Positions 44,587 through 53,438 of a DNA stretch of 64,000 nt are shown here, piece after piece (the first letter of the stretch is position 1; every line of letters begins with the position of its first letter). The notes beneath the pieces are model-generated. The model had not been told where the DNA came from. It ran no database searches and was given only the letters and a program-made list of their open reading frames with translations. Source of the DNA: Alphaproteobacteria bacterium (GTDB lineage: Bacteria > Pseudomonadota > Alphaproteobacteria > Micavibrionales > SZUA-601); the NCBI GenBank assembly GCA_965216395.1, contig OZ244156.1, forward strand, positions 648,765-712,764, given 5' to 3'. A program made the position numbers and the translations under genes.

Positions 44587-44670
44587 GGTGTATTAAGGGC
44601 TTATTTACAATTTGATTATTATTGTATGACCGTTGTATGATTGCGTTTTTGACAATTAGGAAAAAGTAAA

Positions 44671-45037: not shown

Positions 45038-46042
45038 GTGTCTGTGTCAACTGCAAAAGAAAAAGTAAGCGTTTTGCCAAATAAGCAAGAAGCACTCAAA
45101 ATGTATAAAGATATGCTTGAAATTCGTCGTTTTGAAGAAAAGGCAGGGCAGCTTTACGGCATGGGTCAAATCGCTGGTTTCTGTCACCTTTATATTGGTC
45201 AAGAGGCTGTCGTTGTCGGTATGCAATCTGTTCAAGATAAAAATGACACGGTTATTACAACCTATCGTGACCATGGGCATATGTTGGCCTGTGATATGGA
45301 CCCTAAGGGTGTGATGGCGGAATTAACGGGACGCATTGACGGTTATTCCAAGGGTAAAGGCGGGTCGATGCATATGTTTTCGAAAGAGAAAAACTTTTAT
45401 GGTGGCCATGGGATCGTTGGCGCTTGTGTTCCCTTGGGAACGGGTTTAGCTTTCACGCATAAATATAATAATGATGGTCAAATTAATCTTTGTTACTTCG
45501 GTGATGGTGCCTCCAATCAGGGGCAGGTTTATGAGGCCTTTAACATGGCCAAGCTTTGGAATTTGCCAGTTCTTTATATTATTGAAAACAATAATTATGC
45601 GATGGGTACATCAACTAAACGTCACCGCGCGGGTGAGCTTTACAAGCGTGGCGAAGGGTATGATATTCCTGGCAAAAAAGTTGATGGTATGGATATTTTA
45701 AAAGTCCGAGAAGCGGCCATAGAAGCAATTGATTATGTGCGTTCAGGTAAGGGGCCTTATTTGTTAGAGGTTGAAACCTATCGTTATCGTGGCCACTCTA
45801 TGTCTGATCCGGCAAAATATCGTACTAAAGACGAAGTGAATGAGATGAAATCTCAACGTGATCCGATTAGCAATTTTCAAACATGGCTGATTGATAATAA
45901 TATGGCCAGCGAAGAAGAATTGAAACAAATTGATAAAGACATTAAGGCATTGATGAAAGATGTGGCCGAATTTGCTACGAATTCACCATTACCCGATGCG
46001 TCCGAACTTTGGACGGATGTTTTAATTGAGACGAAGGCTTAA
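45038..46042 (+). CDS. pdhA: Pyruvate dehydrogenase E1 component subunit alpha
   Basis: 334 aa with a GTG start after a GGAGG SD. TPP-binding GDGASNQG...NN motif and [11 protein letters not shown]. Confidence 0.94.
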
Positions 46043-46053
46043 GGAGAGAGAAA

Positions 46054-47442
46054 ATGACGATTAAAATTCTTATGCCAGCACTCAGCCCCACCATGACCGA
46101 AGGTAATCTTGCGCGCTGGGTTAAAAAAGAAGGTGATACCATTGAATCGGGTGATGTGATTGCTGAAATTGAAACGGATAAAGCCACAATGGAAGTTGAG
46201 GCTGTTGATGACGGTGTTTTAGGTAAAATCCTTATTCCAGAGGGAAGCGAAAACATCGCTGTGAATACGCCGATTGCGGTTTTACTGGAGGAGGGCGAAA
46301 CAGCCGATGATATTGGTGAGATTGACACCAATATTCAATCACAGTCCCGCCCATTGGAAAACCCGACCACGTCACAACCGATTGAAAATATTCCGTGTGT
46401 TCCGCCCGCTGTGGCGCCGACGACACAACCCGTTTCTATACCTGAACCCTCTTATGGTGAAACTCAATCCATGACGGTGCGTGAAGCTTTGCGGGACGCT
46501 ATGGCAGAAGAAATGCGTCAAGACGAAACCATTTACATTATGGGTGAAGAAGTTGCGGAATACCAAGGTGCGTATAAAGTCACTCAAGGGTTGCATGATG
46601 AATTTGGTGATAAACGTGTGATTGATACACCAATTACGGAACACGGTTTCGCTGGAATTGCCGTGGGATCAGCCTTTAACGGTTTGAAACCGATTTGTGA
46701 ATTTATGACCTTTAACTTTTCGATGCAAGCGATTGACCAAATCGTCAATTCTGCCGCCAAAACGCTTTATATGTCGGGTGGGCAATTGGGATGTCCGATT
46801 GTTTTCCGTGGCCCAAATGGCGCAGCATCCCGTGTCGGGGCACAACATTCCCAAGATTTCGCCAGTTGGTATGCTCATATTCCAGGCCTTAAAGTGATAT
46901 CACCATGGTCAGGTGCGGACTGTAAAGGGCTTTTAAAGGCTGCTATTCGTGACCCAAACCCCGTTGTCTTTTTAGAAAATGAATTGATGTATGGCCAAAG
47001 TTTTGAAGTGCCGGTCTCGCAAAATTTCGTTCTTCCTATTGGTAAGGCAAAAATTGAGCGCGCGGGCACGGATGTCACTATTACGGCTTATTCCATTATG
47101 GTAGGTAAAGCTTTACAAGCGGCTGAAAAATTAGCTGAGCAAGGGATCTCGGCGGAAGTGATTAACTTACGCACGATCCGCCCATTGGATGTCCATACAA
47201 TTGTTGAATCGGTTAAAAAGACTAATCGATGGGTCAATGCTGAAGAATGTTGGCCACAACATGGGATTGGTTCAGAAATGGCGGCGATTGCGATGGAACA
47301 TTGTTTTGATTATTTGGATGCACCAGTGAAACGCGTTCATCAGAAAAATGTGCCTTTGCCCTATGCTGAAAATTTAGAGAAAATAGCGTTGCCACAAGTC
47401 GATGATATAATCAATGCGTGTAAAGAAGTGTGTTATAAATAG
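46054..47442 (+). CDS. pdhB: Pyruvate dehydrogenase E1 component subunit beta with N-terminal lipoyl domain
   Basis: N-terminal lipoyl domain ([14 protein letters not shown]), Pro/Thr-rich linker, then the E1-beta transketolase-like core. 462 aa. Confidence 0.94.
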
Positions 47443-47940
47443 ATGAATTCCCTATCAAAAATTCAACATGATCCCAATACTCTGGCACAGCCATATTGTG
47501 CGGCTTATGTCTTTTTGAAAAAAGAAGATAAGTATTTTTTCTTGCGTAGAGTTAATACAGGATATCATGATGGACTTTATGGTGTTCCTGCGGGAAAACT
47601 AGATGTTGGTGAAACTATTTATGATTGTGCTATTCGTGAAGCAAAGGAAGAGGCTGGTGTAACTGTCAGCAGGGATGATTTAACGTTTCTAGGGACAGCT
47701 CAACGGTTTGACCCAACATCAAGTAAATATCCTCATTGGATAGATTTTTTCTTTTCTGCGGAAGTTTGGGAGGGAACAGCACAAAATATGGAGGCCGATA
47801 AAGCAGATGACTTTGGATGGTTTACGCTTGATGAATTGAAAGGAAAAGTTGCTCCTAATCAATATGATGCGATCTTAAACGTTGAAACAGAAAAAGTTCT
47901 TATTCAACATGAAAACGAAAATGGAATAAAACATGACTGA
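47443..47940 (+). CDS. Nudix hydrolase
   Basis: Perfect Nudix box G-x5-E-x7-REAKEEAGV (GKLDVGETIYDCAIREAKEEAGV). 165 aa. Its ATG directly abuts the pdhB stop. AT-rich. Confidence 0.85.
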   Translation: MNSLSKIQHDPNTLAQPYCAAYVFLKKEDKYFFLRRVNTGYHDGLYGVPAGKLDVGETIYDCAIREAKEEAGVTVSRDDLTFLGTAQRFDPTSSKYPHWIDFFFSAEVWEGTAQNMEADKADDFGWFTLDELKGKVAPNQYDAILNVETEKVLIQHENENGIKHD

Positions 47941-48241
47941 TGAAGGCTTTGATATAAAATTAACTGAGAGACAGCAGAACATTCTCCTTATTTTAAAAGA
48001 AGGAGACAAGACTGGTGCTGAAATTATAAAATCCTATAAACAGAATTATAATAAAGTAATATTATTAGGTAGTGTTTACTCAGACTGTAAGCATATGATG
48101 CAAAATGGCCTTGTTAAAAAACATACTCCATCGACAGAAAATAGAGAGAAATATACCCTAGATGAAAACGGTAAAAAGATAACTGATCAAATTCAATTAA
48201 ATATGCAAACTAATAATGGTTTAATCCAACTTGTTTTTTAA
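47933..48241 (+). CDS. Small winged-helix DNA-binding protein (PadR/MarR-like)
   Basis: 102 aa. LTERQQNILLILKEGDKTGAEII...GSVYSDCKHMMQNGLVKK...YTLDENGKK matches the helix-turn-helix plus wing pattern of PadR-like proteins. 8-nt overlap with the Nudix gene. Very AT-rich. Confidence 0.5.
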   Translation: MTDEGFDIKLTERQQNILLILKEGDKTGAEIIKSYKQNYNKVILLGSVYSDCKHMMQNGLVKKHTPSTENREKYTLDENGKKITDQIQLNMQTNNGLIQLVF

Positions 48242-48260
48242 AAAATTAGGTGAATAAAAC

Positions 48261-49568
48261 ATGCCAACAAAAATTTTAATGCCCGCTTTAAGCCCCACCA
48301 TGACCGAAGGCAACCTTGCCAAATGGTCCATTAAAGAGGGCGACACCATTACTTCTGGCGATGTGATTGCCGAAATTGAGACGGATAAGGCCACGATGGA
48401 ATTTGAAGCCGTGGATGAAGGGGTATTGGCCAAAATCATTATCCCAGAAGGTACCGAAAATGTGCCTGTAAACGCCATGATCGGTGTTTTGTTAGAAGAG
48501 GGTGAAGAAGACGCCGATATTGATTCTTTTATCGCTGCGAATAAGGACGAACCAAAGCCGCAAGCGAATAATCCTACTGCGACAGCGCCAACTCCAACGC
48601 CACCACCGACTACTGCGACACCTGCACCGATGGCAACACCAACACCTGTGGCGCAATCTGGTGGACATCAAGATCGTGTCTTTATTTCACCTTTGGCACG
48701 TCGTCTGGCCGCGCAACATGGTATACAAATTGTTATCCCAGGATCGGGGCCCAATGGCCGTATCATTAAGGCCGATATTGATCGGTTGATTGCTTCGGGT
48801 GACAATACGCAACTTATTAACGCACCACAGAAAAAGAAAGGCCCATCTGCTAGTGAATTGGCCGATATGTTGGGGATTAAGTATATTCGAGAGAAAGTGT
48901 CTAATGTTCGTAAGACCATTGCAGGGCGCCTGAGCGAATCAAAACAAGAAGTGCCACATTTCTATTTAACCGTTGCATGTAATATTGATGCCCTCTTAAG
49001 CGCACGTAAGGCACTTAACACCAAAGGGGATGGTGCTTATAAAGTATCCGTTAATGACTATATTATTAAAGCCTGCGCGCTTGCCTTGAAAAAAGTGCCA
49101 GAGGCGAATACGTCTTGGAATGAAGATAGTATACTCACCTATGAACATGCCGATATTTCTGTGGCCGTGGCAACCGATAACGGCCTGATCACGCCAATTG
49201 TCGCCAAGGCAGAAGAAAAAGATTTGGTCACAATTTCTGATGAAATGAAAGATTTGGCCACACGGGCTAAGGCTGGTAAATTAAAACCAACCGAATTCCA
49301 AGGGGGGAGTTTCTCGCTTTCTAATTTAGGGATGTTTGGGATTAAGGAATTTTCAGCAATTATTAATCCACCGCAATCGTGTATTTTGGCCGTTGGTGCC
49401 GGAACGCCAACGCCCATCGTCAAAGATGGAGAGATTGTTATCGGCACGATAATGCATTGTACGCTTTCTGTGGATCATCGCTCCGTTGATGGCGCTGTGG
49501 GTGCCCAATTCCTGGCTGCCTTTAAAGAATTTATTGAAAGCCCAGAATTGATGGACGCATCATCATGA
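48261..49568 (+). CDS. pdhC: Pyruvate dehydrogenase complex dihydrolipoamide acetyltransferase (E2)
   Basis: Lipoyl domain, P/T/A linker, E3-binding domain ([14 protein letters not shown]) and catalytic domain ([10 protein letters not shown]). Confidence 0.95.
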
Positions 49569-49882
49569 CAAAAACCGTTGATCGCTCACCCTTAGTTGAT
49601 TTCCGTGATCGTCTGGATGAAATTGATGATCAAATCATGGCACTTTTTGCCAAACGTTACCGTGTGCGCGATGAAACGATGCCGGTTAAACGTATGCATG
49701 ACATGCCTATTATTGTACAATCACGTGTGGATGAAGTGATTAACCGCGCTATTAAAAATGCTGAAGAATTGGACGTTCCAGCTGATTTTGCGCGTGCGTT
49801 ATATAAATTGGTTATTGATTACTCGCACCAATATGAAGAAGAATTTTATTCTCATCTAACCAAAAAAGAAGAGATTGTTTAG
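49565..49882 (+). CDS. Chorismate mutase-like (AroQ class) small protein
   Basis: 105 aa. [22 protein letters not shown] resembles the AroQ helix-1 motif (R..ID.ID..I..LL..R). ATGA overlap with pdhC. Confidence 0.5.
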
Positions 49883-50419
49883 ATGAAAATAGGGATTGTT
49901 TCAGATAGCCATGAACACACGGATAATATTAAGAAAACACTGTCTTACCTTGAAGAGTTTGGCTGTGAAGCTCTGATTTTCTGTGGTGATTTTTGTGCGC
50001 CTGGCACAGGCGCGCTTTTAGCAGAATTTAAAGGACCTAAACATTTTATTTTTGGCAATAATGATGGGGATCAATATAATTTGGCGCGTGTCGTTGCAGA
50101 AACGGCTACCGATGTTCATTGGTATGGTGAAAGTAAGGGGTCCGTTGAAATTGATGATATAAAGATCTTTATGACGCATTATCCGATTTATGCACGCCAT
50201 GCCGCTAAATCAGGCGAATATGACTTGGTATGTTTCGGTCACGACCATAAAGCACGTATTGAAGAATATGATACATGTTTGGCTGTAAACGCTGGATGTT
50301 TAAATCCGATGAAAATACGTGGTGATAAACCACCAAGCTATGCTATTTATGATACGAATACACGTAAAGCGACAATTTATGATTTAGAGAACACTATTTT
50401 AGCAGAAAAGAGTTTATAA
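49883..50419 (+). CDS. YfcE/MJ0936-family metallophosphoesterase
   Basis: IGIVSDSHEH, CGDF, GNNDGD and GHDH motifs of calcineurin-like phosphoesterases. 178 aa. Abuts neighbours on both sides. Confidence 0.8.
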   Translation: MKIGIVSDSHEHTDNIKKTLSYLEEFGCEALIFCGDFCAPGTGALLAEFKGPKHFIFGNNDGDQYNLARVVAETATDVHWYGESKGSVEIDDIKIFMTHYPIYARHAAKSGEYDLVCFGHDHKARIEEYDTCLAVNAGCLNPMKIRGDKPPSYAIYDTNTRKATIYDLENTILAEKSL

Positions 50420-50420
50420 A

Positions 50421-51821
50421 ATGAGTGAAACGCAATTTGATTTGATCGTTGTTGGTGGCGGGCCAGGAGGTTATGTTGCCGCCATTCGTGGTGCACAATT
50501 GGGTATGAATGTGGCCGTTGTAGAACGCGAGCATATGGGCGGTATTTGCCTCAATTGGGGATGTATACCAACCAAGGCTCTGCTTCGTTCTTCTGAAATT
50601 AATCACCTTATGCACAATGCGGAAGATTATGGATTTAAAATCAGTGAGATAGAGTTTGATTTTAACAAAATAATTGAACGTTCACGCGCGGTATCGAAAC
50701 AACTTTCTTCTGGTGTGACGCATCTGATGAAAAAAAATAAAATCCCCATATTTGATGCACATGCCGCCCTTGATGGGCCTGGTAAATTGGTTCTCTCAAA
50801 CGGCAAAGATGCGGGCAAAACACTCACCGCACCGCATATTATCTTGGCCACGGGTGCACGCGCCCGTCAACTTCCCGGTTTAGAGGCCGATGAAAAACTG
50901 ATCTGGACGTACAAAAAAGCGATGACACCTGATCAAATGCCAAAAAGTTTGTTGGTTGTTGGTTCAGGTGCGATTGGTTCTGAATTTGCGTCATTTTATC
51001 AAAATATGGGCGTTAATGTTACTTTGGTGGAAGTGGTTGACCGTATTTTACCCGTTGAAGACGCCGAAATATCGGCTTTTGTGCAAAAATCCTTTGAAAA
51101 AGACGGTATGACGGTTTTAACCAATGCCATGGTTAAAGCGCTTGATAAGGGCGAAGACGAAGTGACCGCCACGATTGAACAAAATGGCGAACAAACTCAA
51201 CATAGATTTGATCGCGTGATTATGGCCGTGGGTATTGTGGGCAATTCCGATAATATCGGCTTGGAAACCACAAAGGTACAAACAGATCGTGGGCATATTG
51301 TCACGGATGGCTATGGCCGAACAAATGAACCAGGGATATATGCGATTGGTGATGTCACTGGTGCGCCATGGTTGGCGCATAAAGCATCGCATGAAGGTGT
51401 CATTTGTGTTGAAAAAATTGCCAACCATCCGAATGTTCATCCGATGAAAAAAGAAAATATTCCCGGATGTACTTATTGCCGGCCACAGGTTGCCAGTGTT
51501 GGTTTAACAGCCGAAAAAGCCCAAGCGCTGGGTCATCGTGTTAAGGTGGGTAAATTCCCCTTTATGGCCAATGGAAAGGCGATTGCCTTGGGCGAACCGG
51601 AAGGATTTATTAAAACCGTTTTTGATGAAAAAACAGGTGAACTTTTGGGCGCCCATATGGTCGGCGCGGAAGTGACCGAACTCATCCAAGGCTATACGAT
51701 CGCCAAAACCAATGAATTAACCGAGTCCGAATTGATGCACACCGTCTTCCCACATCCGACACTGTCGGAAATGATGCACGAAGCCGTTCTCGATGCCTAT
51801 GGCAAAGTAATTCATTTTTAA
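50421..51821 (+). CDS. lpdA: Dihydrolipoyl dehydrogenase (E3)
   Basis: GGGPGGY FAD motif, redox-active CLNWGCIPTK and C-terminal HPTLSE. Confidence 0.96.
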   Translation: MSETQFDLIVVGGGPGGYVAAIRGAQLGMNVAVVEREHMGGICLNWGCIPTKALLRSSEINHLMHNAEDYGFKISEIEFDFNKIIERSRAVSKQLSSGVTHLMKKNKIPIFDAHAALDGPGKLVLSNGKDAGKTLTAPHIILATGARARQLPGLEADEKLIWTYKKAMTPDQMPKSLLVVGSGAIGSEFASFYQNMGVNVTLVEVVDRILPVEDAEISAFVQKSFEKDGMTVLTNAMVKALDKGEDEVTATIEQNGEQTQHRFDRVIMAVGIVGNSDNIGLETTKVQTDRGHIVTDGYGRTNEPGIYAIGDVTGAPWLAHKASHEGVICVEKIANHPNVHPMKKENIPGCTYCRPQVASVGLTAEKAQALGHRVKVGKFPFMANGKAIALGEPEGFIKTVFDEKTGELLGAHMVGAEVTELIQGYTIAKTNELTESELMHTVFPHPTLSEMMHEAVLDAYGKVIHF

Positions 51822-51899: not shown

Positions 51900-52202
51900 A
51901 TGTCAAATGAACAAACTGTTAAAGAATTTTATGTTTTAGCTTTATTAGCTGAAAACAAGGGGGATACATTATTCCTTAAAGAAAAATATGATTCTAGTTC
52001 AGGTCTATATTTTTGGTCTTTAAGCAAGTGGAGTGAAAAGAATTCTGTTAAAGAATTTACGACTAAATCTGAAGTAAATGATATGAAAAGACAGATGAAA
52101 AAAAACTTTACCTTGTTTGGTGAATGTGAACAATCCGAAGAAGAAAAGTTAAAACAAATTAGATCTTTAAAAATAAAAACTGTGACAATATCTGTTTCTT
52201 AA
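51900..52202 (+). CDS. Small orphan protein S1 (100 aa), paralog of the 53154..53438 ORF
   Basis: Has an SD and a consensus promoter. Shares MSN..., (Y/H)VLALL(A/N)ENK, L(F/Y)LK and the C-terminal I..L.(I/V)...(I/L)S(V/L) with the second ORF. AT-rich. Confidence 0.6.
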   Translation: MSNEQTVKEFYVLALLAENKGDTLFLKEKYDSSSGLYFWSLSKWSEKNSVKEFTTKSEVNDMKRQMKKNFTLFGECEQSEEEKLKQIRSLKIKTVTISVS

Positions 52203-53153: not shown

Positions 53154-53438
53154 ATGTCTAACACTCAAAAAAATCATGTTCTTGCTTTGCTAAATGAAAA
53201 TAAGCCATCACTGTATTTAAAAGCAGTCAATGCCGGACCAGATAACGATGCTTATGATTTAACTAAGGACAAAAATGATCAAAATATAGTTTATTTTGAG
53301 GATTACATGGAAGCGAGCAGTTTTAGGAAAAAAGTTTTAGAAAGCAAAACAATATTTTACAAGGGAATTTTAGATAGAGAAAGATATAGTGACGAAATTA
53401 TCGGCCTCAATGTAATAGATACTTCACTTTCTCTCTAA
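53154..53438 (+). CDS. Small orphan protein S2 (94 aa), paralog of 51900..52202
   Basis: The ATG at 53154 ([17 protein letters not shown]) is preferred over the tracked TTG at 53139 because it aligns with the S1 N-terminus. AT-rich. Confidence 0.55.

Follow-up and report, generated by a model that had tools for sequence, protein, structure and literature searches.

A 64,000-nucleotide stretch of contig OZ244156.1 from an alphaproteobacterial assembly (GCA_965216395.1), referred to here as the window, contains a pyruvate dehydrogenase (PDH) operon in which two small genes, encoding a Nudix hydrolase and a winged helix-turn-helix (wHTH) protein, lie between pdhB and pdhC. Because this order of modules recalls NrtR-type regulators, the original prediction had read the pair either as an NrtR split over two coupled genes or as a selfish or defense cassette. 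The question raised by the locus is therefore whether the two genes form one unit. The evidence points instead to two passenger genes with separate histories that probably share the pdhB-pdhC slot without forming a functional pair. They are not treated as one unit because three other genomes keep the Nudix gene without the wHTH gene and because the latter lies on a separate insert.

The two genes are fitted tightly into the operon, all on the plus strand. The pdhB gene (46054..47442), encoding an E1 beta subunit with an N-terminal lipoyl domain (NCBIfam PRK11892, E=5e-240), ends in a TAG stop at 47440-47442, and the ATG of the Nudix gene (47443..47940, 165 aa; Pfam NUDIX PF00293, E=8e-21) follows at 47443 with a gap of 0 nt. 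The Nudix stop in turn overlaps by 8 nt, within ATGACTGA, the start of the wHTH gene (47933..48241, 102 aa; Pfam PadR PF03551, E=2e-7), whose ATG lies inside that sequence. Both arrangements are as originally described. After a further 19-nt gap, which carries an AGGTGA Shine-Dalgarno sequence, begins pdhC (48261..49568), encoding the E2 dihydrolipoamide acetyltransferase (NCBIfam TIGR01349, E=1e-160).

The proposed comparison of pdhB-pdhC junctions in relatives separates the two genes. Queried with the Nudix sequence, a set of 5.8 billion proteins yielded relatives at 73% and 60% identity, and both of their contigs (L001 and L002, respectively) read pdhB, Nudix and pdhC, followed by chorismate mutase, phosphoesterase and lpdA. 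In a third genome (L007), whose pdhB is 70% identical to that of the window, a Nudix gene with 36-40% identity occupies the same slot. None of the three carries a wHTH gene between Nudix and pdhC, the spacer there being 6 nt in L001, 13 nt in L002 and 12 nt in L007. The stop/start coupling of pdhB to the Nudix gene (TAGATG in the window, TAATG in L001 and L002, TAA-aa-GTG in L007) is kept in 4/4 genomes, over pdhB identities from 86% down to 70%, and the homologous Nudix proteins measure 161-165 aa without a C-terminal extension. Among the three closer genomes, the proportion of nonsynonymous differences (pN) in the Nudix gene is 0.18-0.25 and its ratio to the synonymous proportion (pS) is 0.24-0.40, which indicates purifying selection; synonymous sites are saturated, with pS at 0.64-0.74 where the Nudix pN is compared and at 0.64-0.80 across the four genomes. 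The pN rate is about that of the chorismate mutase and phosphoesterase genes and 2-3 times that of the pdh genes. The Nudix gene would thus have been passed on vertically, as a resident of the pdh operon particular to one small alphaproteobacterial clade, and would be translated by coupling to E1 beta, as the abutting or overlapping stop and start suggest.

The wHTH gene has a very different distribution. A search of the same 5.8 billion proteins returned only the query itself. Exhaustive phmmer against 1.84 billion representatives gave one marginal match (E=9e-4, 33% identity), a 107-aa protein labeled PadR with an acidic, haloarchaeal-type composition, together with one repeat-driven artifact. 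Searches of all 87 fetched loci by tblastn and of phage genomes and viral contigs returned nothing, and plasmids yielded only a Haloferax PadR (29% identity, E=0.07). No paralogue of either gene was found within the 64-kb window. On these searches the wHTH gene appears to be an orphan specific to the window's species. At this position the Nudix gene is kept in a small clade, and the pair is found in one genome only.

The junction itself carries the signature of an insertion. Twelve nucleotides, GAATAAAACATG, are perfectly repeated in direct orientation at 47924-47935 and 48252-48263, with a spacing of 328 nt, and both copies have a start codon at their end. The left copy encodes the last residues of the Nudix protein and ends in the wHTH ATG; the right copy, just 3' of the AGGTGA Shine-Dalgarno sequence, comprises the pdhC leader and the pdhC ATG. 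Among the 1,770 pairs of gene starts in the window, this is the only one with at least 7 nt in common directly before the ATG, the wHTH and pdhC starts sharing 9 nt and the next-best pairs 6 nt. Between the two copies lies an AT-rich segment of 316 bp (47936..48251, 28.5% GC) that contains the Nudix stop codon, TGA. Nudix homology with L001 extends through AATGGAAT and breaks after it. A tandem-duplication origin of the segment was considered and is ruled out by its lack of similarity to the surrounding DNA, local alignment to both flanks being no better than with shuffled sequences. No terminal inverted repeats were seen by eye at the ends of the insert, and no transposase, recombinase or other mobility gene is present.

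A single gain in the window's lineage is the simplest reading, because the repeat, the composition and the orphan status of the wHTH gene all favor it; the alternative calls for two to three independent losses. We infer that the wHTH segment is a separate, later insertion, with gain as the direction of change. In outline, 316 bp of foreign or fast-evolving AT-rich DNA would have landed just before pdhC, duplicating in the process 12 nt of the region where pdhC translation is initiated. The wHTH gene would then start from a copy of the pdhC leader and ATG, its protein being made by coupling to the Nudix stop, while the Nudix gene would now terminate inside the insert and pdhC would keep its own Shine-Dalgarno sequence and leader. 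A junction lacking the insert would be expected to read Nudix stop, short spacer, AGGTGAATAAAAC-ATG.

Base composition differs between the two genes. Their GC contents are 37.4% (Nudix) and 29.1% (wHTH), against 45-46% for pdhB and pdhC, and the earlier statement that both are far more AT-rich than the pdh genes needs qualification. The GC content of the window is 38.8%, and its long open reading frames (ORFs) average 40% with a range of 31-46%; of the two genes, the wHTH gene alone falls below that range. The pdh genes are the GC-rich ones, and the Nudix gene is near the genome average and ordinary for the window. Its homologues in L001 and L002 also have GC contents 9-11 points below those of their pdh neighbors, so a low GC content is a stable trait of the Nudix gene and not a mark of recent import.

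Structurally, the Nudix protein appears to be catalytically intact, as had been proposed. Assessed against the pattern GX5EX7REUXEEXGU with its catalytic Glu and Arg, residues 51-73 (G51-V73; 47593..47661, located by regular expression), GKLDVGETIYDCAIREAKEEAGV, carry every catalytic Glu and Arg and so show the signature of catalytic competence of the Nudix superfamily (PF00293). The box had been called perfect; near-perfect is more accurate, as the first U position is Ala, which a strict regular expression rejects. This Ala is invariant in seven homologues (alignment A1), and the core residues of the box are invariant across the homologue alignments (A1 and A2). Family-specific motifs (QPYxAAYVFL, RxNTxYxDG and HW[IV]DFF) accompany the box. 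All scores against NCBIfam equivalogs lie far under the cut-offs (MutT, 32.8 bits vs 148 for PRK10776 and 30.6 vs 97.9 for TIGR00586; NudL, 11.6 vs 134; NudC, 30.6 vs 158), and the protein is therefore not an orthologue of any named enzyme. Neither the coenzyme A (CoA) motif NuCoA (PS01293) 5' of the box nor the NADH motif SQPWPFPxS 3' of it was found by regular expression.

A profile built from the four syntenic Nudix homologues was searched against the PDB. Its best match is an uncharacterized Burkholderia (B. pseudomallei) MutT/NUDIX protein (4dyw, 8e-14), followed in order by 2pqv (MutT/nudix-family), Arabidopsis NUDX1, 6ypb (a rose geranyl diphosphate phosphohydrolase) and a Rickettsia "ADP-ribose pyrophosphatase MutT", with NUDT15, MutT, NUDT18 and NudJ (E=2e-6) ranking lower. 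More distant homologues (39-41% identity) occur in other genomic contexts, in L087, L003 and L086. In L003 the gene lies near a GNAT acetyltransferase and a dCTP deaminase, and in L086 it follows glyA. At L087:581-2238 (metagenome contig Ga0265327_10025167), an HhH-GPD glycosylase gene and a MazG pyrophosphohydrolase gene are followed, as last gene, by a Nudix homologue of 40% identity, with overlapping stops and starts, and the cluster looks like a module for nucleotide-pool and base-excision sanitation. A metagenome scan with the Nudix alignment found just two homologues (39-40%), both in unrelated contexts, and none was found in viral contigs. Given the MutT/NUDT1-like structure matches and the sanitation contexts of distant homologues, we lean toward a nucleotide-pool house-cleaning enzyme. 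Most likely, the protein would be an active single-domain diphosphatase of the MutT/NUDT1 type with nucleotide-pool or nucleotide-derivative substrates.

This assignment bears on the best-surviving alternative, which is possible but doubtful: that the Nudix protein is a dedicated sanitizing enzyme of PDH, retained in the operon because it clears damaged or inhibitory cofactor species (analogues of thiamin diphosphate, derivatives of CoA or NADH, or ADP-ribose), the wHTH gene being an unrelated later insertion. Such a link would fit the slot and the E1-beta coupling kept from 86% to 70% pdhB identity, and it would fit the purifying selection. NudJ, a thiamin and hydroxymethylpyrimidine (HMP) diphosphate phosphatase, is among the solved relatives, and Goyer and colleagues are said to have described, in 2013, Nudix enzymes that pre-empt thiamin damage. 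The inhibition invoked has a precedent in oxythiamin diphosphate, described in PMC7671598 as a competitive PDH inhibitor. Against such a link, the best solved matches are MutT/NUDT1-like, the subfamily motifs for CoA and NADH are absent, and the distant homologues stand in nucleotide-sanitation or unrelated contexts, none with PDH. Moreover, the same operon holds a chorismate mutase, a phosphoesterase and, in L001, a GNAT acetyltransferase without an obvious PDH link, and hitch-hiking in a compact genome is therefore favored. Like the chorismate mutase and phosphoesterase genes, the Nudix gene would ride on a strongly expressed, tightly packed operon, and its conservation there could simply be hitch-hiking.

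The identity of the 102-aa protein as PadR/MarR-like has held up. PadR (PF03551) scores 31.3 bits vs a gathering score of 27 over residues 17-82 (profile positions 1-71 of 75), and a Pfam scan down to E=1 returned PadR, FUR, HTH_45 and EarA. By sequence, the best solved structure is Halobacterium RosR (PDB 6qfd), which matches residues 10-88 to residues 10-88 in register at E=2e-3. An AlphaFold2 (AF2) model computed from an alignment of RosR-like PadR proteins reaches a predicted local distance difference test score (pLDDT) of 85.4 and has helices at residues 12-21, 28-39 and 45-57, the strands of a wing at 61-64 and 73-76, and a C-terminal helix at 78-94. Searched with Foldseek against the PDB, the model matches LmrR, RosR, CdPadR_0991, other PadR proteins and the MarR-type ZitR and AdcR, with TM scores of 0.70-0.77. 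The ORF is thus predicted to fold as a DNA-binding domain. With a profile score above gathering level and, in the model from the PadR alignment, a wHTH fold with a single C-terminal helix, the protein agrees with the short PadR subfamily and looks like a short, dimeric DNA binder of that family. PadR proteins bind inverted-repeat operators as dimers and usually autoregulate. The insert would accordingly encode a short PadR-family (RosR/LmrR-like) protein of a shape expected to dimerize and bind DNA. Among viral structures it matches generic wHTH folds, less well than it matches cellular PadR proteins, and these matches give no specific sign of phage origin. An hhalign comparison with alignment A4 was discarded as circular, A4 containing the query. 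Separately, the 5' part of the gene contains, at 47983-48006, a 24-nt near-perfect palindrome, TCTCCTTATTTTAAAAGAAGGAGA (93% complementary), which may be due to chance in AT-rich DNA or be a candidate protein-binding site.

Whether this ORF is a gene at all is the next point to be weighed, since foreign or decaying DNA may stay open by chance and be an untranslated relic without function. The singleton orphan status, the high AT content and the weak Shine-Dalgarno sequence are compatible with such a relic, as is the lack of a recognizable promoter of its own, scanned sites not exceeding shuffle expectation; several canonical PadR hydrophobic positions around the recognition helix are also replaced (GSVYSDCKHMMQNGLV). 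An inert relic is nonetheless unlikely. An open frame of at least 102 codons arose in 1/20,000 shuffles of sequence at 29% GC, and the wHTH frame has the best codon-usage score of the six frames (z=4.0); for these two reasons the ORF is taken to be more than chance. The Pfam score above the gathering threshold, the retention of the PadR core residues G46, Y49 and G59-L60-V61 and of the wing residue R71, and a start positioned for coupling to the Nudix stop likewise argue against decay.

Several points weigh against the reading of two passengers with separate histories. As regards the insertion, synonymous sites are saturated relative to all three relatives, none of which is close enough to date the event, and ancestral presence of the wHTH gene followed by repeated loss remains formally conceivable. 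Taking out the insert together with one copy of the repeat does not give back a normal Nudix stop; what happened was therefore more complex than a clean target-site duplication, the few original 3' codons and the spacer having been replaced as well. For the wHTH gene, the Shine-Dalgarno sequence is weak (GGA) and translation is presumed from the sequence. Single-sequence AF2 prediction is poor (pLDDT 43), and the better model was built on a PadR-selected alignment, so that it corroborates the Pfam call and is no independent proof. For the Nudix protein, the sequence gives no pointer to a substrate: the CoA and NADH motifs are absent, and neither the Pro marker for ADP-ribose nor the Tyr marker for ApnA fits by eye. 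Finally, a true functional connection to PDH, and not hitch-hiking, could explain why the Nudix gene is retained down to 70% pdhB identity.

How unusual the embedding is can be judged from the same slot in other Alphaproteobacteria. A pdhB scan of species-representative genomes gave 80 alphaproteobacterial loci, L007 among them; 79 have pdhB followed by pdhC. The gap between these genes is at most 120 nt in 51/79 loci, in one more, L083, the apparent gap is an alignment artifact, and ∼24/79 loci hold some other small ORF in the slot. The commonest occupant is DUF5076 (PF16826), which visible similarity places at ∼14 loci (L036:6411-6716, L022:3884-4234, L027:6421-6744, L061:4785-5728 and about 10 more); Pfam verified three of these. 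These genes of ∼90-115 aa occur in Bradyrhizobium, Methylorubrum/Methylobacterium, Henriciella, Xanthobacteraceae and others, with three tandem copies in L061, and their link to the slot is recurrent. Lipoprotein-like ORFs, GFA, a Uma2 nuclease and unknowns are also among the occupants. A Nudix gene there is particular to the small clade of the window, but small genes as such are not rare in the slot, and the embedding is less unusual than had been suggested. A literature search for a Nudix-PadR pair or for Nudix genes in pdh operons found nothing relevant.

The remaining explanations join the two genes in function. In the most far-reaching of them, the Nudix enzyme would be a dedicated guardian of PDH that removes a damaged or inhibitory cofactor species (for example oxidized thiamin diphosphate, ADP-ribose or a derivative of CoA or NADH), and a newly captured PadR-type orphan wired behind it would make a young NrtR-like module of independent origin in one species; we regard this as improbable. 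Still less probable is the split NrtR-like module originally proposed, in which the Nudix protein senses ADP-ribose, NAD or CoA derivatives, controls the co-translated wHTH protein and ties their levels to pdh expression. The Nudix-then-wHTH order with overlapping stop and start would allow equimolar, coupled synthesis, some NrtR proteins retain an intact Nudix signature and ADP-ribose (ADPR) pyrophosphatase activity (PMC2330246), and a new pairing limited to one species is compatible with the sequence. Yet the pairing exists in one genome only, against three with the Nudix gene and without the wHTH gene, which came on a separate AT-rich insert. The wHTH protein is PadR-type, and no NrtR-type domain appears in its Pfam scan down to E=1 and no NrtR structure in the Foldseek top 50 of its model. 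The Nudix protein is closest to MutT/NUDT1 types: 2FML, an NrtR-family member (PMC2330246), ranks 19th (E=1e-7) through its Nudix domain alone, and 2FB1 falls outside the best 60, a similarity at the generic Nudix level. No NAD-metabolism genes occur among the Pfam-scanned neighbors, covering 39.0-56.5 kb of the window.

Least credible of all is a mobile selfish or anti-phage defense cassette of both genes that landed in the pdh operon as a unit, for although the Nudix protein weakly matches the PADLOC candidate system PDC-S07 (1.6e-9) and PHROG Nudix families and the wHTH protein matches phrog_4278 (1.5e-6), these matches are at a generic family level, the viral fold matches are generic and weaker than those to cellular PadR, no homologues were found in phage, plasmid and viral collections, neither a recombinase or mobility gene nor, by eye, terminal inverted repeats accompany the genes, and the two have separate histories, the Nudix gene being syntenic and vertically conserved in four genomes.

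The operon as a whole is a tightly packed unit running from pdhA (45038) to lpdA (51821), and Pfam and NCBIfam bear out each gene identity. Its first gene, pdhA (E1 alpha, 45038..46042, 88% identity to the L001 homologue), is separated from pdhB by 11 nt. Beyond pdhC lie a chorismate mutase gene (49565-49882; Pfam CM_2, 1e-17), which overlaps pdhC by 4 nt, a YfcE-like metallophosphoesterase gene (49883-50419; Pfam Metallophos_2, 1e-29), which follows at 0 nt, and, 1 nt further, the last gene, lpdA (E3, 50421..51821, 89-91% identity to the L001 and L002 homologues). L001 and L002 keep the chorismate mutase and phosphoesterase genes at the same place (64-77% identity), with an extra GNAT acetyltransferase gene between them in L001. 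The pdh operon of this clade is a mosaic of unrelated passenger genes. Genomic neighborhood analysis of the locus lists tpiA, secG, pyrG, kdsA, eno, ftsB, the pdh genes, chorismate mutase, phosphoesterase, lpdA, a ZIP transporter and lipA. No RNA family was found in the window with Rfam, and promoter and terminator scans gave no sites above shuffle expectation. RNA structure hiding the pdhC ribosome-binding site was considered and ruled out, folding being no better than that of shuffles (z=+1.6).

Other features of the neighborhood deserve mention in their own right. A direct repeat, TTGTATGA-ccg-TTGTATGA, lies at 44622-44640 in the eno-ftsB intergenic region and overlaps the best promoter-like site 5' of the ftsB-pdh cluster (44612-44641), which makes it a candidate regulator-binding site. 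Two further small AT-rich ORFs stand at operon boundaries near the pdh cluster, at 51900-52202 (100 aa, 27% GC) and at 53154-53438 (94 aa, surrounding DNA about 28% GC). Neither has a Pfam match, and the first shares just a 15-residue patch with an L002 ORF at the same position. AT-rich orphan genes thus seem to accumulate at gene junctions in the window's lineage. In L007 (L007:6904-7836, metagenome-assembled contig CBDFFU010000003.1), the E2 that follows the Nudix gene begins at the E3/E1-binding domain (MSATANRIFISPLAKR...) and is without the N-terminal lipoyl domain and linker, its tblastn alignment beginning at residue 138 of the window's pdhC product; the sole lipoyl domain of that cluster would be the one on E1 beta.

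Taken as a whole, the locus illustrates how operons evolve and does not amount to a new system; each of the two proteins adds a member to a known family. In alphaproteobacterial pdh operons, the junction between pdhB and pdhC emerges as a recurrent landing site for small lineage-specific genes. Here the insertion junction is still readable, with a duplicated 12-nt start region that would let the newcomer be translated without disturbing pdhC. The analysis also corrects an attractive but unsupported split-NrtR reading. The readable junction and the clade-conserved Nudix gene are modest curiosities, and wider interest is possible only for the latter, which a small clade retains inside its pdh operon. 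Were the substrate of this Nudix a derivative of a PDH cofactor, a metabolite-repair enzyme would be added to the PDH system.

Comparison with known systems places the two proteins in different company. In NrtR, an N-terminal Nudix domain is invariably fused to a characteristic C-terminal wHTH domain in a single polypeptide, and the regulators are associated with NAD genes and operators, with ADP-ribose as effector (PMC2330246). The likeness lies in a Nudix module followed by a winged-helix module and in the intact Nudix signature that a minority of NrtR proteins also keep. The locus shows neither the single polypeptide nor a DNA-binding domain of NrtR/NadQ type nor, among the scanned neighbors, an association with NAD genes: the modules are two ORFs with their own starts and stops, paired in one genome, the wHTH is PadR-type, and the Nudix is MutT/NUDT1-like rather than ADPR-pyrophosphatase-like. 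With MutT/NUDT1-type enzymes (4dyw, NUDX1, E. coli MutT, human NUDT15 and NUDT18), the Nudix protein shares a single domain of ∼150-165 aa and an intact box (E from 8e-14 to 1e-7), but it scores under the equivalog cut-offs and has its own motifs and a unique operon context. The wHTH protein resembles the short (subfamily-2) PadR regulators Halobacterium RosR (6qfd/6ez1), Lactococcus LmrR (3f8b) and C. difficile CdPadR_0991 (5dym) in length (∼100-116 aa) and in the succession of alpha1-alpha2-alpha3, a beta-hairpin wing and a single C-terminal helix. It differs from them in sequence (21-33% identity), in lying inside a central-metabolism operon without a promoter of its own, and in having no efflux pump or phenolic-acid decarboxylase partner nearby. 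As for the setting, DUF5076 and the other occupants of the slot, although their protein families are unrelated to Nudix and wHTH, are likewise small (∼90-115 aa), lineage-specific passengers in exactly the same position of the operon.

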